From a bacterium (GTDB lineage Bacteria > Patescibacteriota > Minisyncoccia > Minisyncoccales > JAGGSE01), in NCBI GenBank assembly GCA_021159225.1, contig JAGGSE010000232.1, positions 23,015 through 87,014 on the forward strand: a stretch of DNA of 64,000 nucleotides, read 5' to 3'. Positions 3,027 to 27,602 of the stretch are shown here, piece by piece. The notes beneath the pieces are model-generated. The model was not told the origin of the DNA, did no database searches, and saw nothing but the letters and a program-made list of their open reading frames with translations. A program made the position numbers and the translations under genes. Each line of letters starts with the position of its first letter. Positions within the stretch are counted from its first letter, which is position 1.

Positions 3027-3096
3027 TGAGCCTCCTTGATTAGTGTTCTTAGTTGAGGTTAACTCCTTTTTTTGTTAGAGGCAAGTGAGGTTTGTG

Positions 3097-5193: not shown

Positions 5194-5453
5194 TGTCTCC
5201 TGAGTTTGTTCACGATTTTCGGAACGGGATTAGTTGTATTGCTGGGATTATCCTTAGAATTAACCGAAAACAGGAAAGTATCCTTGCTGCACAGGAAGAG
5301 TTGTCTCAGTTATTTTGCGAGCTTCGGCTCCAGTTACTTCGTGTTCTTTCAGCTTTGGAACGTTCCGTTGATAGCTTTGAAGAAGTGCATGGAGGTCAAA
5401 ATGCCCTCAAGCAATCCGTTCGCGATCACGAAAATCTTGACAGAAGTTCTTGA
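5193..5453 (+). CDS. hypothetical helical protein
   Basis: There is a TAATG overlap with the upstream gene. The 86-aa product has coiled-coil-like composition (QEELSQLFCELRLQLLRVLSALERS). It overlaps the next gene by 53 nt. Confidence 0.35.
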   Translation: MSPEFVHDFRNGISCIAGIILRINRKQESILAAQEELSQLFCELRLQLLRVLSALERSVDSFEEVHGGQNALKQSVRDHENLDRSS

Positions 5454-5970
5454 TTTGAAACCTCAAAGTATTTTGGATATTGGTCCGGGTTTCGGTAAGT
5501 GGGGTGTACTCTTTAGGGAGTACTTGGATGTTTGGAATTGGAGGGTGTTTCCTCCTGAGTGGAAAGTTCGAATTGATTGTATCGAAGCTTATTCCAAGTA
5601 CATCTCTCCTTTACACGAGTACATTTACAACAAAGTAATAGTTCAGGACGTTCGATCCATTTCTTGGGAGTCTTTCCCTACTTATGATCTCATATGTTTG
5701 TTCGATGTTATTGAGCATATGAGCAAACTCGAGGGCTACGATCTGTTACACACCTTGCTCCGGAAGGTTACTAAAGCAGTGTTTGTTTCAACACCATTGC
5801 CAGAGGATTTCTCTTCCTTTCCTCACGGAAGATGGGAAGATGATTATGAAGGACATAAGGAAGCTTGGTCTCCGGTAGAGTTTGTTGAAAATTTTGGCGC
5901 CGAAATAGTGATGTGTGACGGTGGTAAAAGAGGGTTCCGGACTTTTCTCGCGAAGATTATGATACGATAG
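5401..5970 (+). CDS. class I SAM-dependent methyltransferase
   Basis: GGAGG lies 5 nt before ATG 5401. Motif I is ILDIGPGFGKWG, followed by DLICLFDVIEHM. The ORF-track N-terminal extension from 5206 has no support. Confidence 0.7.
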   Translation: MPSSNPFAITKILTEVLDLKPQSILDIGPGFGKWGVLFREYLDVWNWRVFPPEWKVRIDCIEAYSKYISPLHEYIYNKVIVQDVRSISWESFPTYDLICLFDVIEHMSKLEGYDLLHTLLRKVTKAVFVSTPLPEDFSSFPHGRWEDDYEGHKEAWSPVEFVENFGAEIVMCDGGKRGFRTFLAKIMIR

Positions 5971-5981
5971 GAGGCTTTTTT

Positions 5982-7121
5982 ATGGAACTCGTAGAGTTTA
6001 AGGGTCGTAAAGGAATTTGGATTACTTACAAGGGCCGCAAGATCTTTATCCCTGAGGAAAGAATTCATCAACGAGAGTTGGGGTCACGTTCCCGTCTTGA
6101 TCCAAAGATGAAAGTCCTCGGAGGTATCACTTTAGCAACTTTAGCCGCTTACTTTTTAAAACCCGGTACGCCCATTTCTGAACTTTTTCGCAATAAAAGG
6201 TTTGTCGTGATCGCTAAACACCCAAATCCCACTCCCTCAATGAGAGAGAAGTTTTATGACATGATCACGTCGGCAATAATGGGGATGCGTGTAGTTCGTC
6301 CCAAAGCGGGCGCTAAACTTCCCAAAACTGCAGGCGTTGTTCATACCTGGTCGAAAGAAGCCTTTAAGATGAAACTTCCTAAGATTCAAGACTATGACTT
6401 GATGTCTGCTATTGACGATAAAGCGGTATTTCCAAAGCTGTTCAAGGACGACCCTAAAATTGTTCCTCAAACCTTCTTACTTCGTGAGTTTCACAGTCTT
6501 GAATCCGCACGCTATGCGTTCCAACGTGCTGGGAAGGGATTTGTGATTAAACCGCGCATTGGCTCACTTTCGAAGGAACTCCCTACTCATGAGTGGAGTG
6601 ACAAACGTTTGATGAAATATATTGAACAGCACGGTGGTCCTAATAATGTGATCATACAAGAAATGTTACCTTTTAGAAATGAGTTTCGTGTTCACTATGT
6701 GAATGGGAAGGTTTACTCTATTACACATCGTCGTTTTCCTGATCCTTTCCGTAAAATTTACAATAAAATCTTTTATCGATTCGGAATGGAGGGTGGTTCT
6801 TCTATTCCAGTGCTCAACCCTGTGAAACGTAAACGACTTAAGGAGTTTGTGACTCAAGCTATGAAACTATATGAGAAGAACGCCCATGTAGGGTTTGACA
6901 TCGTCGAATTACCTGACGGTTCCTTCCGATTTATTGAAGGAAACCCTGTTCCAGGTAGTTTAATGAACCCTGTTATTGCCAGGAAGTTACACAAGACTGT
7001 CACTGGAGTATGGACTAATGACTTACGCGCCGTTGCTCTAGCTGGAGGCGCGGCGGGTTTATGGTGGGCAGGAGAAGGAGTTTCCGAAGTACGGAAGAAG
7101 GAGAAGCAGCTGTGGGTGTAG
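5982..7121 (+). CDS. ATP-grasp ligase (RimK/GshB-like) with N-terminal WITYKGRKIFI motif and hydrophobic segments
   Basis: ATP-grasp signatures are FVIKPRIGSLSK, VIIQEMLPFRNEFRVHYVNGKVYSI and GFDIVELPDGSFRFIEGNPVPGS. Hydrophobic stretches are GGITLATLAAYFL and AVALAGGAAGLWWAG. Confidence 0.65.
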   Translation: MELVEFKGRKGIWITYKGRKIFIPEERIHQRELGSRSRLDPKMKVLGGITLATLAAYFLKPGTPISELFRNKRFVVIAKHPNPTPSMREKFYDMITSAIMGMRVVRPKAGAKLPKTAGVVHTWSKEAFKMKLPKIQDYDLMSAIDDKAVFPKLFKDDPKIVPQTFLLREFHSLESARYAFQRAGKGFVIKPRIGSLSKELPTHEWSDKRLMKYIEQHGGPNNVIIQEMLPFRNEFRVHYVNGKVYSITHRRFPDPFRKIYNKIFYRFGMEGGSSIPVLNPVKRKRLKEFVTQAMKLYEKNAHVGFDIVELPDGSFRFIEGNPVPGSLMNPVIARKLHKTVTGVWTNDLRAVALAGGAAGLWWAGEGVSEVRKKEKQLWV

Positions 7122-7495
7122 GAAAACACGTGTTGATTGACGTGTTTGAGGTGCCTTTTGAAGTTTTAGATAATGAGAAGTTGGTTCTTCAGTGTTTGAT
7201 TCGGGCCGCTAGTAAGGCCGGCGCAACCATACTTCATTCATTCGTTCATCATTTTGAACCTCACGGGGTAAGTTGTGTGGTTGTGATCTCTGAGTCTCAC
7301 TTTTCTATCCATACTTGGCCTGAACGACTTTACGCGGCCGTTGATTTGTTCACTTGCGGCGATTCCGTTGATTTAGATGTAGCGGTTCAGGAGATTCTTC
7401 AGTTTCTTAAAGGTAATCCTAAAGTTTTAGTCTTGGAGAGGGGGGATGTACATGATCGCCGATTGGGGACTTCACCTGATTTTAGATTTGTATGA
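7112..7495 (+). CDS. speH: S-adenosylmethionine decarboxylase proenzyme, small bacterial/archaeal class
   Basis: AAGGAG lies 9 nt before GTG 7112. GKHVLIDVFE...VVVISESHFSIHTWPERLYAAVDLFTCG contains the Glu-Ser self-processing site and the HTWPE and FTCG signatures. Confidence 0.8.
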   Translation: MGVGKHVLIDVFEVPFEVLDNEKLVLQCLIRAASKAGATILHSFVHHFEPHGVSCVVVISESHFSIHTWPERLYAAVDLFTCGDSVDLDVAVQEILQFLKGNPKVLVLERGDVHDRRLGTSPDFRFV

Positions 7496-7823
7496 TTGTG
7501 ATGAGTTCCTTATTTCTAGTAAGGGCAAACTTAGGGAATTCGTATTCGAACTTTGTGATATTCTTGATGTGAAAAGGTACGGTGACCCTATAATTGAGTG
7601 GTTTGGTAACGGCCCTTCTGAAGGATACACTCTTGTTCAGTTAATAGAGACGTCTCTGGTATCAGGACATTTTGCTCCTTCTAGCCGGACTGCTTACATT
7701 GATGTGTTTAGTTGTAAATTTTTTGACCCGATTAAGGTTCAGGAGTACATTGGAGGTTTCTTTAAAGCTAAGAAGGTTGATTCTACCCTTCTTGAAAGGG
7801 GGTCGAAGTTACGTGAAGTATAA
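7446..7823 (+). CDS. AdoMetDC-like paralog with altered processing site
   Basis: It aligns by eye with the upstream gene: GLHLILDLYDC...LVQLIETSLVSGHFAPSSRTAYIDVFSC...LLERG. ES-SH is replaced by ETS, and HTWPE is lost. Confidence 0.6.
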   Translation: MYMIADWGLHLILDLYDCDEFLISSKGKLREFVFELCDILDVKRYGDPIIEWFGNGPSEGYTLVQLIETSLVSGHFAPSSRTAYIDVFSCKFFDPIKVQEYIGGFFKAKKVDSTLLERGSKLREV

Positions 7824-9012
7824 GATAACATTTCTGGGTTCTAAGGGTATGATTGAGGAAAGTTCCCCTCATCACAAACTGAGAACAGGTATTGTAGTCG
7901 AGACTCGCAGAGCGCGTTTCCAAATTGACTGTGGTGAAGAGGAGTTCTTTGATAACCTTAAGGACGTGGATTTTTTGTATGTAAGTCATTGTTATGATGA
8001 GAAGACTGAAGTTTTTACTAATCGTGGCTGGAAGAGGTTTACTGAGTTAAGTAGTTCGGATTACGTCGCGACATTGGATGAGGACGATCGATTAGTGTTT
8101 GAGAAGCCTATAGATTATATTGAGCAAGATTACACTGGGTTAATGTATTACTTGAGTACGGATTTTTTGAATATGATGGTGACTCCTAATCACAATTTGT
8201 ATATTTCGGAGAACTTTGATGACCCTTCCTTTTCTCTTATCCCTGCCGCGAGGTGTTTTGGGCGCCCTAAGATGTTTACGTGCTCTTTTAAATGTGAACA
8301 ACACGATACTTCTCTGGCACAAGCAGTTTTTTCTGACAGTCGTTCCTCTACCGCTAAGTCAGTAACCTCCGGTAGTCAAGAGTCCTGGGTTCCTTACGAC
8401 GGGAAAGTTTACTGTGTTACTTTACCCGAGTACACTAGGCATATACTGTTGACTCGCCGTGAGGGTAAAGTGTGCTTTTCCGGGAACTCACACCCAGATC
8501 ATGTAAGTGGCTTAAAACACAAGGAAATTCCGACGACGTTGGTGTCTACGTCGCTCGTTCGACGTCAATTAGTCCGTAATTGGAAGGTCACTCCTACTCT
8601 TTTTTCTTCACTTCCTTTTGAGTACGAAGATGTGTCGTTAAAAGCTGTTTCTTGTTTTCACTCTATTCGATGTCCTATGTGGGGTGTTGTAATAAATAAC
8701 GAATTGGGTATCTTTACGGATGTTATACGACCACGTGCTGGCTGGGGGATTCTCAAGGGACTCCGAGTTTACATTGGTGATGGCTCCGCGATTAACCATC
8801 CCATAATCCGCGTTAAGGAAAAGGGAGGAGAACCGTTCGGGCACACTTGTATGAAATCTCAACTCCGATATGCTTCTCAATTGAATTGGCAAACAGTTGT
8901 TTTTACTCATCTTGGCCGCCAGCCTGTTTTGAAAGGTGATGAGAGAGTGAGAGAAATTCTCGGTGTGGAGGATTTAATTATTGCGAAGGATGGACTTACA
9001 ATCGAAGTTTGA
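7813..9012 (+). CDS. metallo-beta-lactamase-fold hydrolase interrupted by a mini-intein
   Basis: GTG 7813 gives VKYKITFLGSKG (an MBL-type N-terminus). LYVSH / intein / SHPDHVSG restores HxHxDH, and later His (CFHS), Asp (IFTDV) and His (FTHLG) motifs are present. Confidence 0.75.
   Translation: MKYKITFLGSKGMIEESSPHHKLRTGIVVETRRARFQIDCGEEEFFDNLKDVDFLYVSHCYDEKTEVFTNRGWKRFTELSSSDYVATLDEDDRLVFEKPIDYIEQDYTGLMYYLSTDFLNMMVTPNHNLYISENFDDPSFSLIPAARCFGRPKMFTCSFKCEQHDTSLAQAVFSDSRSSTAKSVTSGSQESWVPYDGKVYCVTLPEYTRHILLTRREGKVCFSGNSHPDHVSGLKHKEIPTTLVSTSLVRRQLVRNWKVTPTLFSSLPFEYEDVSLKAVSCFHSIRCPMWGVVINNELGIFTDVIRPRAGWGILKGLRVYIGDGSAINHPIIRVKEKGGEPFGHTCMKSQLRYASQLNWQTVVFTHLGRQPVLKGDERVREILGVEDLIIAKDGLTIEV
7990..8487 (+). 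mobile_element. mini-intein (166 codons, no endonuclease domain) in the MBL-fold gene
   Basis: It has Cys1 (CYDEKTEVFTNRGWK), block B TPNH, and C-terminal KVYCVTLPEY...VCFSGN followed by Ser+1. It is in frame, and its removal recreates a conserved host motif. Confidence 0.8.
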
Positions 9013-9220
9013 GTCAGAGGTGCCGAAGTACAGACATCGAACACGAAAACGTAGAATTCCTGTTTACTATCGACTTAGAAGGGAGTACCGAAGTAGGGTA
9101 CCGTGGTTTCGTGAGTGGGCCGTTCTAAAACGTTATGTCACCGTGGATGATGCTGAAAAAGCTGTTAAGGTCTTGAACGCTAAGGATAAGTGGTTTGAAT
9201 ATAGTTTAGATCCTTATTAA
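8981..9220 (+). CDS. small basic protein, unknown function
   Basis: The 79-aa ORF is very Arg/Lys/Tyr rich (KYRHRTRKRRIPVYYRLRREYRSR). The start is uncertain. Confidence 0.3.
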   Translation: MRRMDLQSKFESEVPKYRHRTRKRRIPVYYRLRREYRSRVPWFREWAVLKRYVTVDDAEKAVKVLNAKDKWFEYSLDPY

Positions 9221-9230
9221 GGAGATTGGC

Positions 9231-10229
9231 GTGAAATTTAGAGTCCCTCCTGAGTGGATTGAGAAATGGATTACCAAGGGCGGACGTAGAGTTCCGATTA
9301 TTAAAAAGGAGTTCCGCCAAGCTTTCTTGTGGACTTTCGCCTTTGCCAGGAAGTCTCCTCTTCGAGTTGTTGACTCCCGGTCTATTAATGAAACGCTAGA
9401 AGGGGCGGGCTTCGAGACTTTTAGGTTTCTCGAGAACGTTGCAGCGCCTCATCCCGAAGTCCGCAGGAAAGTCCTTCCTCAGGCTGATGCATTTTTGAAT
9501 TTTTTTATTGGGAGTGCTGAGAGTGAAAGAGCATTTCGTAATGTAAGTTTATCCTTTCATCGTTATACGTCGTCTGCTCCAATAGGGTGTTATGTTGATG
9601 CCTATATTCTTAGGTCGACGGGGAAAATTGAAAGAGAGCTCACACAACAGTGCCTTGAACAATTTTCCGCAAATGATCGTGTCCATCTCAGACACGTTCT
9701 GGGAATTACTCTTCCTAAGGTTCAAAGGGTTCCTTCTGAGGTTAAGGATCTTGCTGAGTACGCGTTTCCGCAAGGATCGGGGGCTATTAGTATGCTAGTG
9801 TACTCCCCTAGGCGGCGTGATGTTCCTTATGATCTTACTTTTCTCCATGAATGCTGTCATTTTGTTCAGAGTCAGCTTGCTACTCGGGCTCCTGATTATT
9901 ATGTAGAATTTGGTCGAAGTGTTTATGCTCCTTACCTTCAGAGAGTTTTGCCTGAAGCTGTACAGCTCTTTCAGCAAGCTACTAAGCATTATGGTTCGGT
10001 ACGCCCTTCAGTTAGGCGTAATTTTGTGAGGTTGCAGTTTTATCGGGCTTTAATGGACGACCCTTTTAACACGTCCGTGATATCAATTCCCAGCCTTCAA
10101 AGTCCAGAAGAGGGCTTTTCTGAGGCTTTTTCGCTTTTTGCACATTCAAATCTTCAGCATCGTAGGTTTCTTAGACTTAAGTGGCCTGAGGCACGTGACT
10201 ATTTTGCTACTTTGGAAGGAGTACTGTGA
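9231..10229 (+). CDS. HExxH zincin-like protein with N-terminal WITKGGRRVPI motif
   Basis: AAGGAG precedes GTG 9231. FLHECCHFV (HExxH) is followed about 85 aa later by EEGFSEAFSLFA. The portal fusion C-terminus shows the same HExxH...E.F.E.F arrangement. Confidence 0.5.
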   Translation: MKFRVPPEWIEKWITKGGRRVPIIKKEFRQAFLWTFAFARKSPLRVVDSRSINETLEGAGFETFRFLENVAAPHPEVRRKVLPQADAFLNFFIGSAESERAFRNVSLSFHRYTSSAPIGCYVDAYILRSTGKIERELTQQCLEQFSANDRVHLRHVLGITLPKVQRVPSEVKDLAEYAFPQGSGAISMLVYSPRRRDVPYDLTFLHECCHFVQSQLATRAPDYYVEFGRSVYAPYLQRVLPEAVQLFQQATKHYGSVRPSVRRNFVRLQFYRALMDDPFNTSVISIPSLQSPEEGFSEAFSLFAHSNLQHRRFLRLKWPEARDYFATLEGVL

Positions 10230-10468
10230 TGACTGAATTCGACCCAATTCGGTGGCTGTCCAAGTATCGAGCAAAACATCTCGGAGAAGATCACTTCTCC
10301 CTGTGCTCTTTTTGTAAACATTTCCGTGAGGATTGTACTTGTGTAGCGTTTCCCAAAGGAATTCCAGGAAAGTACTTGTTCTTTGATGTCTATCACCTTG
10401 AGAAAGATCCTTCTCAGAAAGGGGATGCTGTATTTGAATTGTCTTCTCGTTTTGTGAAGGAGAAGTAA
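10226..10468 (+). CDS. small Cys/His-rich protein
   Basis: The 80-aa product contains CSFCKHFREDCTCVAFPKGIP. It has a GTGATGA-type overlap with the upstream stop. Confidence 0.4.
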   Translation: MMTEFDPIRWLSKYRAKHLGEDHFSLCSFCKHFREDCTCVAFPKGIPGKYLFFDVYHLEKDPSQKGDAVFELSSRFVKEK

Positions 10469-10470
10469 CT

Positions 10471-11439
10471 ATGCTGAAGATTTTATATATTTGTAAAGAC
10501 TTTACTAACTGGATTGGACATGGACATCTAGCCTTTAAGAAAGCTCTTGCTAAAGTTGCTGATGTTACTTTTCATCACAAGCCCTGTCACGTACCTACGC
10601 TATTGAAGGAGCTCGCTGACAAAGGGAAAACTTTTGATCTACTCATGTTGGGTGAAGCTCCTCCAGTAACTCCTCCTTTGACAGGGCTAGCTGAGATTAA
10701 GCTTCCTAAGGTAGTTCACTATTGGGATGTTCATGCTTATCAGAGAGATCGGCTCCTGTTTATCAAGGAGAATAAAATCGACTTTGTGGTAGTAAAGTTT
10801 AAAGAAGGGACGCTCAAGTTGTTTCCTCGACTCCTTGATGTAGTTCCTTGTGAGTGGTTACCTATTGGAGTTGACACTCACGTGTTTAAGAAATGGTCTC
10901 AAACGAAGACCATAGACATCTTACTAACCGGAGCTATTCTCCCTGATGTTTATCCTATGAGAACATCTTATTTACGTACGTTTAAGGGGTACCCTGGTTT
11001 TGTACACGTCCCTCATCCTGGTTATGGTCACTTTGATTCACGAACTGCGATTGTTCATGATACCTACGCGAAGCTTTTGAACTCAGCTAAAGTTTGCCCT
11101 ACTTGTGGTAGTATCTACAATTACTCCATTCAGAAGTTCTTCGAGATTCCCGCGTCTTTTTCTCTTTTGGCAGCTCCACCTATTAACGACATTGTAGAAC
11201 TTGGGTACGTTCCAGATAAACACTTTTTGCCCGTCTCACCAACTTCCTTTGAGGATAAAATTCTCTCAGTGTTAAGGGACGAAGACCGCTTAGTTGAGAT
11301 TACGACACGAGGGTATAGATTAGTTCGTAAGTTCCACAGTGTCGATGTGAGAGCAAAGCAGTTTGTTAACTTGATGTGTAGAGCTGTATTGGGCGTTAAG
11401 CAGCCATTTGATGGGTTAAGGGAGTTTTCTCTGAGGTGA
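10471..11439 (+). CDS. possible CgeB-like / GT1-like glycosyltransferase
   Basis: MLKILYICKD... at the N-terminus and AKVCPTCGSIYNYSIQKFFEIPASFSLLAAPP resemble the CgeB-family C-terminal pattern. This call is from memory only. Confidence 0.4.
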   Translation: MLKILYICKDFTNWIGHGHLAFKKALAKVADVTFHHKPCHVPTLLKELADKGKTFDLLMLGEAPPVTPPLTGLAEIKLPKVVHYWDVHAYQRDRLLFIKENKIDFVVVKFKEGTLKLFPRLLDVVPCEWLPIGVDTHVFKKWSQTKTIDILLTGAILPDVYPMRTSYLRTFKGYPGFVHVPHPGYGHFDSRTAIVHDTYAKLLNSAKVCPTCGSIYNYSIQKFFEIPASFSLLAAPPINDIVELGYVPDKHFLPVSPTSFEDKILSVLRDEDRLVEITTRGYRLVRKFHSVDVRAKQFVNLMCRAVLGVKQPFDGLREFSLR

Positions 11440-12512
11440 GAATCGCAATTCTAGGGGCAGACGGCTACTTAGGTTTTGCACTTTCACATCATTTGCTTAG
11501 AGAAGGGCACTCTGTACTAGGCGTTGACAATTTAAAGCGGGAGTCTTTAGTAGAGGCGACCTCCTCTTATTCGATTATTCGTCACTCTTTTGAGTCCTTA
11601 AAAGATTTACAGACTGTTGAGTTAGATGTTACAGATTCCGCTGCCTTACGTGACCGATTGGAGAAGTTTGAGCCTGATTTGATTGTCGACTTATCCCGGT
11701 TATACAGCCCAGCCCTTTTTCAGCAGCGAGACCAATTGCTTTGTGTTACTAACCTTTACAACACCATTTCGGTTGTAAATACACTAGCTTCGTCCGCTTT
11801 ACGTAACGTTCCTTTATTTGTGGTAACCGATCTAAACTCCTATTATCCCTCACAACTACCGGTTCCAGAAGGTCCGTTATTGATTCACCACAATGAGCTT
11901 GAGGATTTTTTACCTTTTCCATTGAAAGGGGACTCTCTTAATCAGTGTACTGAAGCCTTTGTTCAAATTTTCTTAACATATGCTCGTAACCACTTAAAAC
12001 TCAAGTTAGTCGATCTCCGTGTAGGTTCTGTGTATGGTGTGTATCCAAGTGAGGAACCACTTCATCGATTGCACGTTGACAAGTTTCATAGTACCGTCAT
12101 TAACTACTATTGCGCCCGAGGCGTCCGTCAAGGGATCGTAAATGTGCCTCAGGAGGGTTACTATACTATTATCTCGTTGAATCAATTTGTTGAGAGTTTT
12201 ACTTACTTGTTGACTAAGAAGGTGGACAAACCCATTGTTCATTTGTTCGATCGGCTGGTCAGCTTTCAGGATTTGATTTATAAGATAAAACATGTTTTTG
12301 CGGAGGATTTTGGGTATAGACTACGAATTGGGTTCTTTCGTACTAAAACATTTGAGTTTACTTGGCCACAGTTTGTCCACATTGAAAGGGAACTCTTGAG
12401 TGATTGTTTCTTAAGTGATACAATTGAGCTTGAGGATGATTTGAGAACGTTGATCGATGTGTGCTTCAGGAATAAGAAGAAAATCACTTCGTTACCTCGT
12501 TCTTTGTGGTAG
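11436..12512 (+). CDS. NAD(P)-binding extended-SDR (epimerase/dehydratase-like) protein, catalytic YxxxK not evident
   Basis: The Rossmann motif is IAILGADGYLGFALSHHLLREGHSVLGVDN. At the expected PYGxSKxxxE position the sequence reads SLNQCTEAF. Confidence 0.6.
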   Translation: MRIAILGADGYLGFALSHHLLREGHSVLGVDNLKRESLVEATSSYSIIRHSFESLKDLQTVELDVTDSAALRDRLEKFEPDLIVDLSRLYSPALFQQRDQLLCVTNLYNTISVVNTLASSALRNVPLFVVTDLNSYYPSQLPVPEGPLLIHHNELEDFLPFPLKGDSLNQCTEAFVQIFLTYARNHLKLKLVDLRVGSVYGVYPSEEPLHRLHVDKFHSTVINYYCARGVRQGIVNVPQEGYYTIISLNQFVESFTYLLTKKVDKPIVHLFDRLVSFQDLIYKIKHVFAEDFGYRLRIGFFRTKTFEFTWPQFVHIERELLSDCFLSDTIELEDDLRTLIDVCFRNKKKITSLPRSLW

Positions 12513-12523
12513 GAGGAAAGAGT

Positions 12524-13411
12524 ATGAGAGTCCTAATCTTGGACGATGAGGCGCCAGTAAGGGACTTTTTTAAGTCTTTCCTCGAGAGTAGTTTTGACAA
12601 TTGTGAGTGTTATACTTGCGGTTCAGTTCAAGAGTTTAAGAAGTTAAATACTGAAGTCAATCCCGATTTCTACATCCTTGACGTTGTCCTACTCAATGGG
12701 CAAGTGTTCTCAGCGGTGGACCAGTTTGACCCTGCACGGGCGATACTTGTGACAGGTTACGATTCGGATAGAGTTCGTAAAATCGCCCGCGTATATGGGT
12801 TTCACGGGGTTCTTCCCAAGCCTGTAAATGGAGACGTGTTGAAAAGTATGCTGGATTCTTTGGTATTGAGGGTGAGCCCCCGCTTACGGTCTAGAGTTCA
12901 GGATTTAATGGGCGTTTTCCCGAAACTGTTTGAAGTTCTTGCAAAGAGTTTGGTTAGTGGGCAGAAAGTGCAAGAATGTGTTGAGATAGTTGGTAAAGCT
13001 CTTAACGCAACAGTGATAGTTTCCCCATTTGAACAAGGTGGTATGATTAGTTTCCCTTTGTTTGCATACTTTAAAGAGGGCGAACCTAAAATGCCCCGAC
13101 GATTTAAGTTACCTAAAGGTTGGTTTGATCAGTTGTTGAACGGGAAATTTGTTACCTGTTTCGAACAGGGACTCGACGAGCTTGGCATCGATGTTAAGAG
13201 GGCTTTAGCATTTCCTATCAAGGGCGAAGGTATAGGTCAATGGGGTTTCTTCTTGACTTATGATGATAAGGATGCTCCTTATTCTCAAGAGGAAATTACG
13301 TTCGTGAAGTGTGTTACGGATATTCTTGCTCTTGCATTACTCCGGCTACGTCATAATACTACTCTCGAGACTGTGCTTCGCAACGCCATTACGAAGGTGA
13401 GTGCTTTTTGA
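12524..13411 (+). CDS. response-regulator receiver domain fused to a GAF-like domain
   Basis: AGGAGG precedes ATG 12524. The receiver residues are MRVLILDDE (acidic pair), DFYILDVVL (phospho-acceptor Asp), AILVTGY (Thr) and VLPKP (Lys). The C-terminal half has GAF-like periodicity. Confidence 0.65.
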   Translation: MRVLILDDEAPVRDFFKSFLESSFDNCECYTCGSVQEFKKLNTEVNPDFYILDVVLLNGQVFSAVDQFDPARAILVTGYDSDRVRKIARVYGFHGVLPKPVNGDVLKSMLDSLVLRVSPRLRSRVQDLMGVFPKLFEVLAKSLVSGQKVQECVEIVGKALNATVIVSPFEQGGMISFPLFAYFKEGEPKMPRRFKLPKGWFDQLLNGKFVTCFEQGLDELGIDVKRALAFPIKGEGIGQWGFFLTYDDKDAPYSQEEITFVKCVTDILALALLRLRHNTTLETVLRNAITKVSAF

Positions 13412-13702: not shown

Positions 13703-14494
13703 TTACATCTCCGTGATCTTGAAAGAGACCTTCCGCAGTGTTAGATCGTACACCGGAATACAGTTTTGGTGTACTCCCCCCTTTAGCGCTTTAATCTCTG
13801 GCCTCTCTTCTACCGGGAACATTCTCTGTAGTCTAATATAAAGAGGAACGAAGTAGTAAATAGGTATTTTGGGTATTAAGAAGAGATGATATGCAGGTGC
13901 GTAGTGTATAAAGTTTTTGATAAGTGTCTGTTTTTCGGGTAAGTCGTTGACTATTTTGTGAAGATCAATGGAAATTGGGTTGGTATAGTTTTTAGGGTAC
14001 ATAGGCGCGTACTTCCTACTCAAGACCGGCGGTGTGAGCTCTAAATTGTAGATGGGAGCGAACGTTGAGAAAGGTGTTCCGTAGTATGCGTTTGACCAGT
14101 GAACATAAGTTGGTAGAAATTTTTCGAGGACTTGTTTGGTCACTCTGGCGATTGGGTCTTCTTCAATCTTGAGAGGAGTGAAGACCATAAAATCGAGATC
14201 GTGCGGTGTTCCGTAGAAGACTGATCCTGTTACGATCACGTAGGGGTTTTTGATCTGGAAAGGTAACATCCTGTTCAAACTTCTTTTTACTTTATGAGCG
14301 TTTACCCCTCTCTTACGCAGTTCTCTGACTATTAAGCTGTCGAGTTTCATAAGCTGCGATAGAGTCAAACCCCCGACTTTCCCTCCTTTTTTTCGGGCCT
14401 TTTTAATCAGGGCTACTACAATTGAGTGCTTAAAAAGCAGGTCTTTAGTAGGGATTTTTGATAAATCGGCCCCTAAAAGCTGAGTTACTTTCAT
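13703..14494 (-). CDS. Pol-beta-superfamily nucleotidyltransferase-like protein
   Basis: On the - strand AAGGAG lies 6 nt before ATG 14494. VTGSVFYGTPHDLDFMVF fits the GS-x(n)-DxD minimal NTase motif. This is the second lone - strand gene. Confidence 0.5.
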   Translation of the reverse strand: MKVTQLLGADLSKIPTKDLLFKHSIVVALIKKARKKGGKVGGLTLSQLMKLDSLIVRELRKRGVNAHKVKRSLNRMLPFQIKNPYVIVTGSVFYGTPHDLDFMVFTPLKIEEDPIARVTKQVLEKFLPTYVHWSNAYYGTPFSTFAPIYNLELTPPVLSRKYAPMYPKNYTNPISIDLHKIVNDLPEKQTLIKNFIHYAPAYHLFLIPKIPIYYFVPLYIRLQRMFPVEERPEIKALKGGVHQNCIPVYDLTLRKVSFKITEM

Positions 14495-14503
14495 ACTTAC
14501 TCC

Positions 14504-14532
14504 TTGCACTAGTTGGTTGGTTCTAGTATAAA
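14504..14532 (+). promoter_or_regulatory. sigma70-like promoter candidate for the head operon
   Basis: TTGCAC (14504-14509), a 17-nt spacer and TATAAA (14527-14532) lie in the 78-nt divergent intergenic region upstream of the portal gene. Confidence 0.4.
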
Positions 14533-14572
14533 GGTAAGGAGACGCCGAGTCAACCCGTAGAGGAGGAAGACT

Positions 14573-17500
14573 GTGGAGAGACAACTTGAGAAGAAGGAGA
14601 AGGAACAACAGGTTAAGGAGCGATTAGTTGGAGAGACTTCGATCACTGCAGGAACTTTCGCAAGTTTGGTTACTTCTCTTTCCGCCTCGCAACTCCGTCA
14701 AATCTATAAAGAGACTAATGTTGTGAGGCGGTGTGTTGACCATATTGCGAGTTCTGTTGCGGACCTTCCGCGAGAGTATGATGTAAAGTTTGGTTTGAAG
14801 AAAAGTGAAGTAATCGATCTTATTTTTGTGCGCGAGACTATAACTGGAGAGACTTTTCGAGATGTGTTAATCGCTTTGACAGTGGATTTGTTGGTGTTGA
14901 ACAAAGGTGTGTTAGTACCTTTGAAGACATTTGGCGGAAGGTTAACCGGATTTACGGCACGCGATGCAGCCACTTTTTCTCCAGTGTATGAGAAAGACGG
15001 CAGGCTTCGTGGGTTCATTCAACAAGTCGGCTTGGGTAAGGTGTATAAGTTTCGCCCAGATGAGTTAGTGTACATTCAACTTATTCCTAAAACTTACACT
15101 GCTACTGGAGGGTCTATCTTAGAGTCTCTTACTTATGAAGTTACGAGCTTGTTAAAGAACTTAGTGAAAAGCGATCCTGAATCTAGGAAGCCTATCGGGA
15201 CATTTATTTTTCCGGAGAGTTTGGACGAGGCAGTTGTTAATAGGTTTCAAGAGGACTTAACCTCGTTAGTATCTGGAGGTAAAGTGAAAATCCCCGTGGT
15301 ATGGGGCGCTGGTAAAGGGGAGTGGATCGAGTTGGTTAAACAATTTGACATTCAGATGGTTGCTACGTTCTTGGATCGCTTAGATTGGCTAGTTCGGAGC
15401 GCTTTTGGATTTGTGCCTCCTGGAAGTAGTTTACTTCAGTCACGACCTAACGAAGATTTGATGTATTCTACCTTAGTCCCTGTGGTTGCTCGGGCGATCC
15501 AGAATCGACTGAATCGGTTTCTTAAACCTTATGGAGTTACTTTTAGTTTTAAGATTCCTCCTGCACACTCGTTGCAACGTATTATTGAAGGGACTAAGTC
15601 AGGGTTGATCTCACCTAATGAGGCCCGTCAGTTTATGTACTTACCACCGGTTAAAGGCGGCGATCAGTTGTCAGTTATGCAGCCTCAAGGTTTAACTCCT
15701 GTAGGGAAGAGTGGGCAACAATCTCCTGTGGTACCTCTCTCGGACGCTAAACAAGATACAGATATTACTCGCTCGCTTTCTATAGAAGAAGTGAAACAGC
15801 TTAGGAATCTCTCTCTTTTGTCCGATGAGAAGGTAGCACGGTTTGTTCTTAGGAGAATTAAGTTGCTGAAATCGATGCAAGAGGAGTTAAGAGAGGCAGT
15901 TCTGGATTATCGTTCTTCTTTTGAAGAGAAGGTGATGTTGCGTCAGGATACCCCTGCTTTACCTTCTTATGTGCCTTTCTTACTACGAGTAGAAGGGATC
16001 ATTGATAATTATGAGGCCCAGTCGATTGCGCTGGGTTATGAACGCGTGCTCCAGTTTTGGAACAGACGCGAGTTCGATAAGGATCTGATTGACGCTGAGA
16101 TTGCTGAACACGATCGACGACTTCGTCGAGAGTCTATTCGGAGTTGGAAAGAGCGTTTAGATTCTATTCACAATGAAGCAAAAAGAGGTGAGTGGGATCA
16201 AGTTAAAAAAGCTCTTGACAATTTTATACGCGCGATTATTGCCGCCGCAGGGTTTGTCACTTTGTTTGCGAATCTCCCTCTTGTACTTGTGTCTAAGTTT
16301 TTTGAGGAGACACAAGGAGTGCTCTTACGCTGGGTGGGCATATCTGATGATGTTACATGTTATGATGAAGCAACTAAAGTGTTGACGGATCGGGGGTGGA
16401 AGTTCTTTAAGGATTTGGATGGTACGGAGAGGTTGTTGAGTATTAACCCTGATGATTTGACTCAGGTTGAGTGGCTTAAACCTGTTGCCTATCAGACGTT
16501 TGAGTACGATGGTGAGATGATTCATTTCGAGGGCTATCAAACGGATCTACTCGTGACACCTGATCATCAGTGTTTTGTGTATGATAATGGAAGACTTCGG
16601 AAAGTTCGCGCAGGAGAGCTGACTCAATTTGCGAAGGTTTCTTTCTACCATGGTGTTCCCGTCGATGTTGCTGACGTGTCTAGTATTTCCTGTAGTGAAG
16701 CAGAAGTTCGCCTTTCTTACTACAAGGGGAAGGTCTACGACGTGACTCTTCCTAAATGGCACACTCTTTACATCATGCGCAATGGGAAGTGTATGTGGAG
16801 TGGTAATTGCGAAGACTGTGCAGCTCTTCAAGGGCGCGTTTTTAAACCATCCACGCTTGAACTGCTTCAAACTTGGCCCGGTTATGGTGTGCGTTGTGGC
16901 CATAACTGTAGGTGTGCCCTTGAACCTGTTTCTAATATTACGCAAGCAAGTGTTAACGAGTGGATCGGTAAAGTTATCAAGTTTAGGAATTTGCACGTCC
17001 CTCTAAAGGAAGCAGCGCTTGTTTATTCTGACGTAATCGAACATATCGATAAGAAGATCGCAGAAGCTCTCAAAAAGAACCCTCACTTACGGGAGCCTTC
17101 GTACGTTGCTTTATTTAAGGAAATCCGATTGCGCGAGACTTTAACCCAACCTAAATACGATGCTATACGAAATATACTCGAAATCCCCGCCTCTTTTACT
17201 GAGGAGCAGATTCGTTCAGCTTTTGTCGATGCAGTCGCCCTGAACGTCCTGTTACGTCAGAACTTTCAGTATCCTAGCTCACCTTTCGTCTCTGAGATAA
17301 TGTCTATAATGGAGCGGGCCAGGAAAGTGCTTTGGAACGAGCAATTAAGTAAGCTTTTACCTTCAGAGTTGAAAGAGTCTTGGTTGGAAGGTGATTTCGC
17401 TCCTTTTGAGAAATTGTCACTTAAGCTGTTTGATATTCCAGTTAAGGCTTACTTTGATCCCAGAGAGTTTTTTACTTACATGTTCCGGGCGTCCATTTTT

Positions 17501-18841
17501 AGCCCTCATCGAGAGGATATAGTAGGGATGCCCGCTTTTCGAGAACTCCTGGCAACCCATGTGTGGTCCCCAACTACTTATGAGAATTGGCTTAACCGTG
17601 TTTATAAGGCCCGTTCCGCCCCTTGGCGGGCCACGTTAACTCCTGATAGAGTACTTACTCGACTGGAATACGTTGACTCAGAGTTCCGTGATAGATTGGT
17701 AGAAATCCTTAAGAGTTATCCGATGTTACGAGTTCCATCTTTTTGGGATGGGTTGAAGGGAATTAAGTTGTCAGATGTATCTCGCTACGACGCGTCTTAT
17801 AGTTTGGAGGGGACCTATGATGAGTTTGTGAAGTCCTTTGTTGGTTCTATCTTGACTACGGGGGATACATTTCAGTTCCTCCACGAGCTAGGCCATCATG
17901 TGTTTGAGCGTCATTTTACCGCGCGCTCTACACTAAGAGACGCGTTTGCTTATGTGTACCGTGAACGAGTTTTGATCCCGTTTTACGAGCAAGTTTTACC
18001 TTATTTGACTGAAAAGGAAGCTCAAAAGTTCATGGGGTACATGAACGAGATGCTTGATGCAAGTGAGAAGAGAACTCTTGGGAGCTTTTTCTTAGGGTCT
18101 CGAGACGTATTTAGAGAGGAAATTTTTAAGCCTATTTATCCTAAGTTACAAGAGGTGATGCGGAACTGGGCACTTCCGATGCGACTGTACTCATTACAGA
18201 GCATCGACGAATCCTTTGCCGAGTTGTTTGCCACTTATATACGTAACCCATCGGTGTTGTACTTCAGTGACCCCGAGTTGTACTTGTTTATGGAATCGCT
18301 CTTGCAGAACCTTGCTGTACGTCCAGAAACTTTGATAAGTAAGCACCCTATGTGGAAACGTGTTTTTGAGGCCCTTTCACGTATAGGTTTAACACGGAGT
18401 CAGATAAAGCAACTTCTTCCGAACCTTCTGTGGGCACATATTAGAGAAGATGTTGGGTTTGAGGAGTTGATAGCGTTGTTCGAGAGCGCTGCTACTGCAG
18501 AGGGCGAAGACTTACGGAAGAAGATAAAAGATATTGTCGAGCGCTTTTTCAAAGCGCCTGAGAAGAAGAAAATGCCTAGTTCTGAGCCGAAACCCAAAGA
18601 GATTAGGAAGCCTCGTAAGGCACCTTCTCTTCCCGAAAAGACTCTAGTAACTCTAAAGGATGTGCGCGAAGTTCTTGAGAAGACTTTGAAGCTCGAAGGT
18701 AGAGACTTAGAGGTTTTTATGGACAAGATTGTTTCGGTTGTAGCTGAAGGTAAGATGAGTATGATTGATGTGTATGAGAAATTGACTTCTTTCAAGACTA
18801 AAAAGGAGGCTTTGAAGTGGCTAGCCGGTTTGAAGAAGTAA
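14573..18841 (+). CDS. portal protein fused to a MuF-like head-morphogenesis domain (intein-interrupted) and an HExxH zincin-like C-terminal region
   Basis: AGGAGG lies 6 nt before GTG 14573. The N-terminal third is portal-like (LRQIYKETNVVRRCVDHIASSVADLP...). After intein removal the MuF signature reads ISDDVT-CEDCAALQGRVF...CGHNCRC. The C-terminal region has FLHELGHHVF ... DESFAELFATYI and ends in a Lys/Glu-rich tail. Confidence 0.75.
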   Translation: MERQLEKKEKEQQVKERLVGETSITAGTFASLVTSLSASQLRQIYKETNVVRRCVDHIASSVADLPREYDVKFGLKKSEVIDLIFVRETITGETFRDVLIALTVDLLVLNKGVLVPLKTFGGRLTGFTARDAATFSPVYEKDGRLRGFIQQVGLGKVYKFRPDELVYIQLIPKTYTATGGSILESLTYEVTSLLKNLVKSDPESRKPIGTFIFPESLDEAVVNRFQEDLTSLVSGGKVKIPVVWGAGKGEWIELVKQFDIQMVATFLDRLDWLVRSAFGFVPPGSSLLQSRPNEDLMYSTLVPVVARAIQNRLNRFLKPYGVTFSFKIPPAHSLQRIIEGTKSGLISPNEARQFMYLPPVKGGDQLSVMQPQGLTPVGKSGQQSPVVPLSDAKQDTDITRSLSIEEVKQLRNLSLLSDEKVARFVLRRIKLLKSMQEELREAVLDYRSSFEEKVMLRQDTPALPSYVPFLLRVEGIIDNYEAQSIALGYERVLQFWNRREFDKDLIDAEIAEHDRRLRRESIRSWKERLDSIHNEAKRGEWDQVKKALDNFIRAIIAAAGFVTLFANLPLVLVSKFFEETQGVLLRWVGISDDVTCYDEATKVLTDRGWKFFKDLDGTERLLSINPDDLTQVEWLKPVAYQTFEYDGEMIHFEGYQTDLLVTPDHQCFVYDNGRLRKVRAGELTQFAKVSFYHGVPVDVADVSSISCSEAEVRLSYYKGKVYDVTLPKWHTLYIMRNGKCMWSGNCEDCAALQGRVFKPSTLELLQTWPGYGVRCGHNCRCALEPVSNITQASVNEWIGKVIKFRNLHVPLKEAALVYSDVIEHIDKKIAEALKKNPHLREPSYVALFKEIRLRETLTQPKYDAIRNILEIPASFTEEQIRSAFVDAVALNVLLRQNFQYPSSPFVSEIMSIMERARKVLWNEQLSKLLPSELKESWLEGDFAPFEKLSLKLFDIPVKAYFDPREFFTYMFRASIFSPHREDIVGMPAFRELLATHVWSPTTYENWLNRVYKARSAPWRATLTPDRVLTRLEYVDSEFRDRLVEILKSYPMLRVPSFWDGLKGIKLSDVSRYDASYSLEGTYDEFVKSFVGSILTTGDTFQFLHELGHHVFERHFTARSTLRDAFAYVYRERVLIPFYEQVLPYLTEKEAQKFMGYMNEMLDASEKRTLGSFFLGSRDVFREEIFKPIYPKLQEVMRNWALPMRLYSLQSIDESFAELFATYIRNPSVLYFSDPELYLFMESLLQNLAVRPETLISKHPMWKRVFEALSRIGLTRSQIKQLLPNLLWAHIREDVGFEELIALFESAATAEGEDLRKKIKDIVERFFKAPEKKKMPSSEPKPKEIRKPRKAPSLPEKTLVTLKDVREVLEKTLKLEGRDLEVFMDKIVSVVAEGKMSMIDVYEKLTSFKTKKEALKWLAGLKK
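16358..16807 (+). mobile_element. mini-intein (150 codons) in the MuF-like domain of the portal fusion
   Basis: It has Cys1 (CYDEATKVLTDRGWK), block B TPDH, and C-terminal KVYDVTLPKW...CMWSGN followed by Cys+1 (the first Cys of CEDC). It is clearly homologous to the intein at 7990-8487. Confidence 0.8.
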
Positions 18842-25709: not shown

Positions 25710-27602
25710 ATGATTACCGCTGTAACGTTTACGTCGGAAGATGTAGTCGCGTTTTTGAACACTACACTACCTTTTCACATTGAGGGCATTCCTTTAGTTG
25801 TAGTTGGACAGGATCAACGAGATCTTACCAAAGTCTTGAACTGTCGTACTTATGAAGGGGGAAAGACTTTTGGTAGGAAGTTACTTGCTGGATTAGAGAA
25901 GGTCGAAACGGAGTATTTTGTTTTTGTACACCCAAAGGCGGCTCTCTCTAATTTAGACTTCCTTGGTGAGGCTTTGAAAGTTCTTTCTTCCCCTGAAGTT
26001 GGTTTTGTAGTTCCTGGACTTCCTAAGGGTGTGGGACCACAGAGCTATAAGAGGAAAGACAGAGGAGCATTAGCTCGGATTGCCCCTTGGTGTTTCGCGT
26101 TCAGAACAGAGGAGGCTATTACTCTGTTTGAGAAAGCTCTGAAGGTGTTTCAAGACGAGCGAATTGTTCAGCTTGTATGTTATGAGCTGATGAAGCAAGG
26201 TCGTTTTAGCTATGTACTCCCAATGTACACTTTGGATATGGAAGAGGATTTTAGTGATCTGAAACTTGACGCGAGGTTCAGAACTCAACCGTTGGAGCCA
26301 GTATTAATCTATCAATATCGCCGGTTGAAGGACATCCCCTCTACTGCGAAATCTTTGTTCAAGGATGTCATTGTTTGCACTCCTTTAGACGTTCCTGAAA
26401 TTGATCAGGGAAAGTTGATTTTTGTTCTGAGAGAGGGTGAGGATTTTGCCGATATTTTTACCCTTGAGCAATTGCAAAGGATGTGTGACAATCCTGATCC
26501 GTTTGTTTTCGCGTACCAATTTCCTGTACTACGGACTTGGTCGGATAATCGATATTTGAAAGATCAAGTTACTTGGGAAATTAGGGCTTTTGCTTCCTTT
26601 GAAAAGATTGCCCCGCGTATTTTGATTAATCCTTACTACGGGCAACAGCTTCCTTATGAAGGCCTACGCCCAGTTAATGTGCCCATTATCAAGAAGGTTA
26701 ATGACTTACCCGACAATTGTTCTATTGCGAGACTTCGTACTCCTACCTTGACTATTGCAACGATTATGAAGGACGAAATGAAAAACCTCCCCACGTATTT
26801 GGGCACTGCTCTTCCTTTTGCTCAACAGGTGATTTTGGTAGACACCGGTTCTCAAGATGAATCTCTGTCTTTTGCAAAGCGCTTTGGAGCTGAGGTGTTA
26901 GAGACTAAATTAGATAAAGACTTCTCTAAAGCGCGGAATTTGTACTTACAGAGGGCGAACGGCACTTGGCTCCTTCAACAGGACCTGGACGAAATTGTTG
27001 ACTATAAGCAGATTTACGCAGTGATGTTGGAAACACCTGAGAATACAGACGCGGTCCAGCTTCAGGTGCACAATTTAACTCCGCAAGAGGGGACGGTCAT
27101 CTATCAAGATGCCATTCGTTTGGTTAAGAACCCACGAACTTGGTACTACTCAAATCGGGTTCACGAGACGTTTGAACGCTGCGCTACTGAGGAGAACCGT
27201 GTTGTATCACGAGTTAATGATGTAGTGATTTACCACCTAGGATTTCTGTCCCCACGCATGAAAGAGAAACTCTCTTTTTATCGAGAGTTGATCAACATGC
27301 AGTTAGAGGAGGAACCGGAAAACCCCTTACCGTATTTTAATCTCGCGCTCGATCTGTTGAACGAGTATGAAGAGCATCCTGAAAATTTGGACGTAGCGCT
27401 CAAACTCCTCCTTCAAGCAACTTCTCTCCATCCGAGTTTTGCCCTTGCACAGTACGAAGTTTCGAGAGTATATTGTCAAAAAGCACTCGAGGCAATTGAG
27501 AGGACCCTCGAAGTTGTGCCACCTCAACATCCTATGGTGAATGCTATTAAGAAGGTTTACGGACCTTTGAAAGAGTACACCAAAAGGTATATTGTGAGAT
27601 GA
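25710..27602 (+). CDS. family-2 glycosyltransferase with TPR-like C-terminus (630 aa)
   Basis: LTIATIMKDEMKNLPTYLGTALPFAQQVILVDTGSQDESLSFAKRFGAEV...LQQDLDEIV is a GT-A fold pattern with D.DE. TPR-like helices occupy the last ~100 aa. The N-terminal half may be a second GT-like domain. Confidence 0.7.
   Translation: MITAVTFTSEDVVAFLNTTLPFHIEGIPLVVVGQDQRDLTKVLNCRTYEGGKTFGRKLLAGLEKVETEYFVFVHPKAALSNLDFLGEALKVLSSPEVGFVVPGLPKGVGPQSYKRKDRGALARIAPWCFAFRTEEAITLFEKALKVFQDERIVQLVCYELMKQGRFSYVLPMYTLDMEEDFSDLKLDARFRTQPLEPVLIYQYRRLKDIPSTAKSLFKDVIVCTPLDVPEIDQGKLIFVLREGEDFADIFTLEQLQRMCDNPDPFVFAYQFPVLRTWSDNRYLKDQVTWEIRAFASFEKIAPRILINPYYGQQLPYEGLRPVNVPIIKKVNDLPDNCSIARLRTPTLTIATIMKDEMKNLPTYLGTALPFAQQVILVDTGSQDESLSFAKRFGAEVLETKLDKDFSKARNLYLQRANGTWLLQQDLDEIVDYKQIYAVMLETPENTDAVQLQVHNLTPQEGTVIYQDAIRLVKNPRTWYYSNRVHETFERCATEENRVVSRVNDVVIYHLGFLSPRMKEKLSFYRELINMQLEEEPENPLPYFNLALDLLNEYEEHPENLDVALKLLLQATSLHPSFALAQYEVSRVYCQKALEAIERTLEVVPPQHPMVNAIKKVYGPLKEYTKRYIVR

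Follow-up and report, generated by a model that had tools for sequence, protein, structure and literature searches.

A putative class 1 mini-intein in the MuF-like domain of a portal-MuF-HExxH fusion protein of an uncultured tailed phage

The 64,000-nucleotide window analyzed here (contig JAGGSE010000232.1, positions 23,015 to 87,014) codes for a giant phage head protein in which a portal domain, a MuF-like domain, and a C-terminal HExxH region are fused, and the MuF-like domain is interrupted by a 150-codon insert. We read the insert as a class 1 mini-intein that has no endonuclease, and give this reading, including its MuF-like host domain, a probability of about 85%. The insert spans 450 nucleotides of the plus strand (16358..16807) and is in frame with the open reading frame at 14573..18841. 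Its first codon is TGT (16358-16360), coding for Cys1 in ...ISDDVT|CYDEATKV..., its last is AAT (16805-16807), coding for Asn150 at the close of ...CMWSGN|, and the TGC that follows (16808-16810) is Cys+1, which opens CEDCAALQGRVF; excision in silico yields ...RWVGISDDVT|CEDCAALQGRVF...CGHNCRC. A sequence-only reading of this DNA had proposed a 150-codon intein in this place, and its coordinates are exact, with all of the peptides that it quoted present where it had put them. It had also counted this intein as the second of two in the window, correctly, as the first lies at 7990..8487, and had noted a Gly-Asn end, which is read here as Gly149-Asn150; both window inteins terminate in Ser-Gly-Asn. 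The G+C content of the intein (44.7%) matches that of the host open reading frame (44.2%). The parts of the insert are listed here; P0003 to P0006 are homologues that lack it, and the clade is the group of related inteins described below.

16358..16807 (+): mini-intein of 150 amino acids, class 1 type, without homing endonuclease; from the indel relative to P0003-P0006, tblastn, the HINT fold, and the proportion of nonsynonymous differences (pN)
16358..16402 (+): block A (CYDEATKVLTDRGWK), including the Cys1 nucleophile; Cys1 in 148/148 clade members, T10 and G13 invariant
16556..16567 (+): block B, T67-P-D-H70 (TxxH motif); T in 137/138 and H in 137/138 clade members
16637..16696 (+): variable linker, intein residues 94-113; predicted local distance difference test score (pLDDT) <50, fast-evolving
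16730..16768 (+): block F (KVYDVTLPKWHTL), with Asp128 (F:4) and His135 (F:13); aligns to CDC21 inteins
16787..16807 (+): block G (KCMWSGN), with penultimate Gly149 and terminal Asn150; GN ending in 139/148 clade members
16808..16810 (+): Cys+1, C-extein nucleophile and first Cys of the host CxxC motif; 49/49 relatives

Alleles with and without the insert

Alleles with and without the insert are both found at the predicted splice junction, a textbook case of presence/absence polymorphism. Besides the window protein, a search of a large protein collection with the spliced protein returned four relatives (P0002 to P0005). P0002 is 74% identical (BLASTP) and carries a homologous block of 152 amino acids at the matching site, and the other three have no insert: P0003 (1283 amino acids; ...WVGIEDDVT-CKVCAAM...), P0004 (1276 amino acids; ...WVGIHDAAT-CTDCAAL...), and P0005 (1441 amino acids; ...WVGTGDENM-CQDCREM...). 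A deep profile search added P0006, which is also intein-less (...GILDKHT-CKDC...). These natural homologues, P0003 to P0006, are without exactly the 150-amino-acid block and are collinear with the window protein on either side of it. The same deep search found P0007, a fragment at a contig end in which ...WIGILDGHT is followed by CYSEDTYVLTDQGWKLFKDLD, an intein at the identical site that is visible for its first ~23 residues only; its C terminus (...AVSYTHLTLPTTPYV) we take to be translated sequencing-adapter sequence, making the contig chimeric or truncated. In IMG/VR, locus L013 has an intein that shares the site and is 85% identical to that of the window, and L006, L007, L011, and L012 carry the P0002 allele (P0002, L004, L006, and L007 at 72% identity). 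The insert-bearing alleles at the junction thus number four: the window, L013, P0002, and the truncated P0007.

A hidden Markov model built from the intein-less homologues only matches the window protein as two abutting pieces, with positions 3-156 of the intein-free profile (A3) on amino acids 446-599 and positions 152-248 on amino acids 745-841. The contigs coding for P0003 (L003) and P0002 (L004) are syntenic with the window, and a single sample (3300033150) holds both intein-plus and intein-less alleles. The JGI source samples of the phage are this one, 3300033141, 3300033156, and 3300021509. The junction is viewed here as a protein alignment; a MAFFT DNA alignment against L003 misplaced the gap because the flanks have diverged.

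The insert is related to inteins in sequence, fold, and catalytic residues

That the insert is a class 1 mini-intein is supported by homology, a HINT fold, the catalytic residues, the junction polymorphism, and purifying selection. Searched alone by tblastn against 50,697 phage records, it matches inserts within genes for NAMPT, the alpha and beta subunits of ribonucleotide reductase (RNR), DNA methyltransferases, primase/helicase, and a portal, as well as an annotated 'hint domain protein' (best E value of all these matches, 2e-10). It is 36% identical to the first mini-intein of the window (phmmer E 5.9e-16). Its three PDB sequence matches are weak and are all inteins, and its alignment to the Pab/Pho CDC21 inteins pairs llVTPdHqcFV with irVTPtHpfFV in block B and VYDvtlPkwHtl with VYDlqvPgyHnf in block F. 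An AlphaFold2 model of the intein (pLDDT 71) has an all-beta architecture, and its top 50 Foldseek matches in PDB are all HINT-fold proteins; the best is the AceL NrdHF intein (E 3.7e-6; template modeling [TM] score, ~0.6), and others include a Clostridium bacterial intein-like (BIL) domain, the CDC21, DnaX, DnaB, RecA, and DnaE inteins, and hedgehog.

All of the residues associated with splicing are in place (Cys1, T67-x-x-H70, D128 at F:4, H135 at F:13, N150, and Cys+1), and they are kept in the window, L013, and P0002 alleles. A class 3 assignment was rejected, as the intein has Cys1 and an Asp at F:4 and lacks a WCT triplet. No endonuclease domain lies between blocks B and F, only a 20-amino-acid linker without a domain match. 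Full-size relatives have ~200 extra residues between the splicing lobes at the position of this linker, which is the usual place of a homing endonuclease.

A large intein clade with a Gly-Asn C terminus

A word-indexed homology search with the bare intein gave no matches because such inteins are embedded within larger proteins, and relatives were found instead by pattern scans derived from the intein alignment, with the C terminus left out of the patterns. The scans identified 260 relatives in IMG/VR and 135 in one-per-species genomes. The 148 relatives with both ends aligned have the following composition.

Residue 1: Cys in 148/148
Last two residues: GN in 139, SN in 7, GQ in 1, SQ in 1
Residue +1: Ser in 79, Thr in 39, Cys in 30
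Length: 131 full-size (~320-400 amino acids), 17 mini

A terminal Asn is therefore found in 146/148 members and S, T, or C at +1 in 148/148. The clade is very large (loci L011-L170), its members starting with CYDExTEV and ending in (W/I)(S/C)-Gly-Asn; ~100 of them have Cys at block F:4, even though every member retains Cys1. Judged by eye from the flanks, many of the hosts appear to be housekeeping enzymes of archaea, bacteria, phages, and giant-virus metagenome-assembled genomes (MAGs), with flanks such as HELVRHR, GNSIGVVTINL, and GDKF|...|SRHGQKG that we take to be those of ThyX, RNR, and RNA polymerase beta. The penultimate Gly is thus the norm of the clade and not an oddity. A penultimate Gly is also present in the intein of the recombination directionality factor (gp51) of phage Bethlehem, which splices completely and is slowed by a G-to-H change, and a block F His can stand in for the penultimate His (Kelley et al. 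2016, PMC5050341). By analogy, His135 would be the block F His for that substitute role in the MuF intein.

The host is a portal-MuF-HExxH fusion

The host gene is divided as follows.

14573..18841 (+): host gene, portal - MuF-like domain - C-terminal HExxH region; one continuous open reading frame
14672..16090 (+): portal domain, amino acids ~34-506; phrog_12 (E 3.5e-19), phrog_2662 (E 1.4e-13)
15908..16357 (+): N-extein of the MuF-like region, ending ...LLRWVGISDDVT; profile A3 3-156 on amino acids 446-599
16808..17095 (+): C-extein of the MuF-like region, CEDC...G.VF...WPG.G..C...NCRC.LEP; profile A3 152-248 on amino acids 745-841
17882..17899 (+): HELGHH (HExxH) in the C-terminal region; invariant in all five homologues

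The precursor has 1422 amino acids, and 1272 after splicing in silico. The architecture is common to P0002 through P0006, and the host is a portal-MuF-(HExxH) fusion rather than a stand-alone MuF protein. Its portal domain has only a sub-threshold match to Pfam Phage_portal. The MuF-like module is fused directly behind the portal domain, inside the packaging/head module, and the genes downstream code for the large terminase subunit (TerL), a prohead protease/scaffold, the major capsid protein, and a head-tail adaptor. TerL is at most ~25% identical to that of any cultured phage and the related contigs are 97-99 kb; the host is an uncultured tailed phage of ~97 kb.

The C-terminal region of ~580 amino acids (17096..18838) bears the HELGHH motif, and P0006 has a weak Peptidase_M90 match at the equivalent site. 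The region in the window protein has no significant Pfam match and no significant PDB sequence match. It is probably a metallopeptidase-type cargo or effector domain, as in the portal-MuF-effector 'polyvalent' proteins.

The flanks of the intein probably form a divergent MuF-type module

The sequence-only reading had equated the host motif with the end of MuF/SPP1 gp7-type proteins, and the relatives and a profile comparison bear this out while Pfam scores remain sub-threshold; a divergent MuF-type module is supported, but less strongly than had been implied. A profile of the intein-free flank recovers 47 proteins from 1.84 billion representatives, and nearly all of them align to WVxxxDxxxCxxC...G...C...CRCxLxP, with the W and D of WVGxxD near-invariant. 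Pfam places 26/46 of the flank-profile relatives in Phage_Mu_F, with no competing family, and some of the relatives bear ADP-ribosyltransferase (ADPRT, ART) or ATLF-type cargo typical of MuF toxins. Using hhalign, the flank aligns to the Mu gp30 family alignment (WQYVAVMDGRTRPEH...NGWNCRCRV) with a probability of 75.6% and an E value of 2.4e-5. A portal-then-MuF gene order is known (PMC5576092), as are portal-MuF-effector fusions (PMC5512222), and a MuF-type module behind the portal is consistent with both.

The +1 nucleophile had been identified as the first Cys of the host motif, and this Cys (profile position 153) proves to be invariant in 49/49 relatives, whether intein-plus or intein-less. 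The other four motif Cys residues (C749, C775, C779, and C781) are conserved in 44-48 of 47-48 relatives. In the hhalign alignment, the Mu gp30 equivalents of the first two motif Cys residues are Arg155 (for Cys+1) and His158. An AlphaFold2 model of the region in the intein-less P0003 (pLDDT 78, and >90 around the motif) has the junction between a beta-strand (RWVG) and a helix starting at CxxC, an arrangement compatible with a metal-binding knuckle to which the Cys cluster may contribute.

The intein has consequences for annotation. It hides the MuF domain, in that the unspliced 387-amino-acid fragment has no Phage_Mu_F match and a Pfam MuF match appears only with in silico removal of the intein, and it inflates the giant portal fusion, whose mature form would have 1272 amino acids and the junction DDVT-CEDC.

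Several observations weigh against a class 1 intein in a MuF-like host. For the intein, the match to Pfam Intein_splicing (14.8 bits) is below the gathering threshold of 35.8, those to Pfam Hint and to intein-containing NCBIfam models are likewise sub-threshold, the latter weak, and the AlphaFold2 model is of moderate confidence, with a three-sequence alignment and TM scores of 0.5-0.6. The penultimate residue is Gly149, where a class 1 intein usually has His at block G:6, although that His does not strictly define the class, and splicing is predicted from knowledge of the family and from the sequence. For the host, the spliced flank aligns to Phage_Mu_F (PF04233) as had been anticipated (positions 67-111/112), but with E 3e-4 and 21.9 bits against a gathering threshold of 29.6, and over the C-terminal half of the model only. 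The intein-less homologues fare similarly (E 6.6e-5 to 0.08, 14-24 bits, model positions ~61-112), leaving both them and the window protein below the gathering threshold.

These scores could also be read as meaning that the flanks are not MuF at all but a Cys-rich, zinc-ribbon-like linker, unrelated to MuF, within a giant portal protein, leaving the intein call intact. The low bit scores and the restriction to model positions ~61-112 extend to all family members, and structural matches are similarly poor: a Foldseek search of the MuF-region model has no significant match in PDB, and those in BFVD are weak (best E 3e-4, TM score <=0.35). Nonetheless, nearly every named BFVD match is a minor capsid, head morphogenesis, or MuF-like protein, or a portal; 26 of 46 relatives are Pfam MuF members, some with MuF toxin cargo, and no rival family is found; the hhalign alignment covers WVG..D..T....G.VF...NCRC; and the place right after the portal domain fits the known gene order (PMC5576092). 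We therefore consider an unrelated linker unlikely. The MuF host was the weakest part of what the sequence-only reading had claimed, and its weaknesses are outweighed by the transitive and profile-profile evidence.

Proposed splicing

The gene would be translated as a 1422-amino-acid precursor, in which Cys596 (intein Cys1) would undergo an N-S acyl shift at Thr595-Cys596, aided by Thr662 and His665 of block B. Cys746 (+1) would then attack the thioester with the assistance of Asp723 of block F, and Asn745 would cyclize with the help of the block F His730, Gly standing in place of the usual penultimate His. A final S-N shift would leave a native peptide bond in ...ISDDVT-CEDCAALQGR..., within the junction peptide WVGISDDVTCEDCAALQGR. 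The predicted products are a 1272-amino-acid protein collinear with the intein-less orthologues and a free 17-kDa intein, and splicing would restore a contiguous WVGxxDxxT-CxxC...C...CRC module. It is reasonable to suppose that the precursor is not assembly-competent and that splicing is required for function. If splicing occurs, then portal/MuF maturation would have an obligatory splicing step, which in principle could be rate-limiting or regulated.

An extension of this proposal is that the intein acts as a conditional switch on head assembly, one that responds to redox state or metal. The host CxxC...C...CRC cluster lies right beside Cys1 and Cys+1, and a disulfide or a metal among these thiols might hold the precursor unspliced until the intracellular conditions are right, so that release would set the time at which the portal and ejection-protein complex matures. 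Were this so, the repeated capture of inteins of the same clade at two MuF Cys positions (see below) would reflect selection for control, not mere Cys availability. We regard such a switch as improbable.

Constraint on the intein

Intein and host gene have diverged together, with purifying selection equally strong on both. In a comparison of the window with L004, pN is 0.154 for the intein and likewise 0.154 for the 1268 extein codons, and synonymous sites are saturated, with a proportion of synonymous differences (pS) of ~0.8; constraint is accordingly reported as pN and pS, and not as a ratio of nonsynonymous to synonymous substitution rates (dN/dS), which is not computable because dS is saturated. 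The linker is the sole fast-evolving piece, with 50% identity to P0002 versus 75-78% in the splicing lobes. Equal constraint on intein and host is the expected pattern where an essential protein is lost whenever splicing fails.

This constraint bears on the possibility that the element is a degenerate intein that does not splice and is tolerated as a permanent domain of the mature protein. It has no homing endonuclease, its N and C termini are close together, such that a loop insert could be tolerated, and the model puts the junction between a strand and a helix; moreover, the MuF intein of Methylococcus capsulatus has been called apparently degenerate and its mobility doubted (Ward et al. 2004, PMC517821). 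Loss of Cys1, Asn, and the residues of blocks B and F would be expected of a dead intein, however, whereas alleles differing at ~15-28% of positions have kept the full set of splicing residues, and pN is as low as that of the host despite saturated synonymous sites, with only the linker evolving fast. A degenerate intein is thus very unlikely.

Least probable, and only barely so, is a Hint-type autoprocessing (release) domain that cleaves without ligation and frees the MuF C-terminal part and the HExxH cargo from the portal. HINT domains of polymorphic toxins act by such cleavage, the fold also matches BIL and hedgehog autoprocessing domains (Foldseek ranks 3, 7, and 13), and the penultimate His is missing. 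Cargo release is also plausible in a portal-MuF-effector architecture (PMC5512222). Yet the insert lies inside the most conserved motif and not at a domain border, and cleavage alone would split WVG..D..T|CxxC, which is contiguous in 49/49 relatives; insert-free orthologues keep both the fusion and the contiguous motif, so no release step is needed at the junction; both nucleophiles and the terminal Asn are present, whereas BIL domains commonly lack the +1 nucleophile or the Asn and lie in variable regions or at the borders of domains; and relatives are found in genes with ThyX-, RNR-, and RNA polymerase beta-like flanks (by eye), in which ligation would be obligatory.

Inheritance and distribution

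Lacking an endonuclease, the mini-intein is now vertically inherited, having diverged to the same extent as the host and being unremarkable in composition. It is nevertheless patchily distributed. The clade of the window, L013, and P0002 is intein-plus, and P0003 and P0004 are intein-minus; P0007 has the intein, which its nearest relative, P0006 (48% flank identity), lacks. This pattern implies two or more gains or precise losses. P0007 and the window are 27% identical in the flank and 70% identical in the first 23 intein residues, although little weight can be put on this contrast, as block A is conserved throughout the clade. The patchiness, together with the occurrence of relatives at other insertion sites, suggests homing or ectopic transfer in the past.

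The first mini-intein and neighboring genes

The other intein of the window is a paralogue of the MuF intein.

7990..8487 (+): first mini-intein, 166 amino acids, Cys1...Ser-Gly-Asn|Ser; within the gene at ~7813..9012

It splits the HxHxDH metal-binding motif of a metallo-beta-lactamase (MBL)-fold protein (YVSH|SHPDH), and its block F:4 residue is Cys, compared with Asp in the MuF intein. The L004 orthologue of this gene (3721-4422) is intein-less (YVSH|THSDH); it has a weak precomputed Pfam label of Anti-Pycsar_Apyc1, and our own Pfam run gave a weak Lactamase_B match only. Inteins at the MBL site are also present at L057, on the contig of L013, and, as a 139-amino-acid mini-intein, at L097, on a contig binned as Woesearchaeota.

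Just upstream of the head module, a gene at 12506..13411 (+) codes for a response-regulator receiver protein (Pfam Response_reg) and is kept in L003 and L004. Directly upstream of the portal gene, 13703..14608 (-) is the sole minus-strand gene nearby and has no family match; it was considered as a free-standing intein endonuclease and rejected, as the gene also adjoins intein-less alleles. The region upstream of the head module (window ~3085-12512; L004:3018-3720 and its neighbors) codes for several glycosyltransferases, an epimerase, a DNA ligase, and a split S-adenosylmethionine decarboxylase-like pair, an auxiliary set that is unusual for a ~97-kb phage. Another glycosyltransferase gene (25710..27602) lies within the structural module.

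Comparison with known intein systems

Inteins in phage portal, terminase, and Mu F proteins are already known. In 2004, a mini-intein without an endonuclease was described in protein F, the Mu gp30 homologue, of a Mu-like prophage of M. capsulatus Bath, and it was suggested that head morphogenesis might depend on its excision (Ward et al. 2004, PMC517821). That intein is likewise an endonuclease-less mini-intein in a MuF-family head-assembly protein of a tailed phage, but its host is a stand-alone Mu F protein, unlike the portal-MuF-HExxH fusion of the uncultured phage described here, and it is said to resemble archaeal IF-2 inteins (PMC517821). It is unlikely to be at the same site as the window intein because canonical Mu F has Arg at the equivalent of Cys+1. 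A homology search with Mu gp30 found only close enterobacterial homologues, all intein-less, and the MuF-family surveys PMC5512222 and PMC5576092 do not mention inteins.

In mycobacteriophages, class 1 inteins are present in portal and terminase proteins, and many phage inteins are without the penultimate His (PMC5050341). As in the window, these are class 1 inteins in virion-assembly or packaging proteins; however, the mycobacteriophage portal inteins are in the portal body, several with endonucleases, whereas the window intein is in the MuF module behind the portal and belongs to a different, very widespread CYDExT...GN clade. An intein in the 'portal protein' of GX15bay (H18) was considered as a same-site case and rejected, as it is in the portal body at about amino acid 140 and not at the MuF site. 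Some crAss-like phages are also rich in inteins. The best structural and sequence matches, the AceL NrdHF, Pab/Pho CDC21, and DnaX mini-inteins (6zgq, 6rpp/6rpq, and 7cfv), have in common with the window intein the HINT fold, VTPxH in block B, and VYD...H in block F, but they are only 17-20% identical and are in other host proteins. Of these, 6zgq is a class 3 split intein, in contrast to the Cys1, F:4 Asp, and absence of a WCT triplet in the window intein.

The closest parallel in motif context is a second MuF site, HPN|C[R/I/L]C, which is occupied by inteins of the same clade at 11 loci (L014, L015, L018-L021, L023, L024, L037, L039, and L095). The hosts are stand-alone MuF or minor head proteins in other viral contigs and a Bacteroidales MAG, and the inteins range from 148 to ~349 amino acids, most being full-size (~340-350 amino acids). 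Like the window intein, they have Cys1, a CYDExTEV start, a G/S-Asn end, and Cys+1, and sit before a conserved Cys of the MuF motif; they differ in that the site is ~30 residues downstream, at NCRC and not CxxC, and the hosts are not portal-fused. After splicing in silico, 4/5 of the hosts tested match head morphogenesis or minor head PHROGs (E 1e-50 to 1e-111); L021 alone has no head-morphogenesis PHROG match, and no spliced host has a Pfam MuF match at E <=0.01. The L018 host has a C-terminal ADP-ribosyltransferase toxin domain. With two sites occupied, inteins have repeatedly targeted the MuF Cys motif in uncultured phages.

For intein biology, the window adds a new site in a virion-morphogenesis protein and a large clade in which a Gly-Asn C terminus is normal. 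Relative to the known portal, terminase, and Mu F inteins, what is new is the T|CxxC insertion site, the portal-MuF fusion that hosts it, and the phage lineage; current concepts are unchanged.

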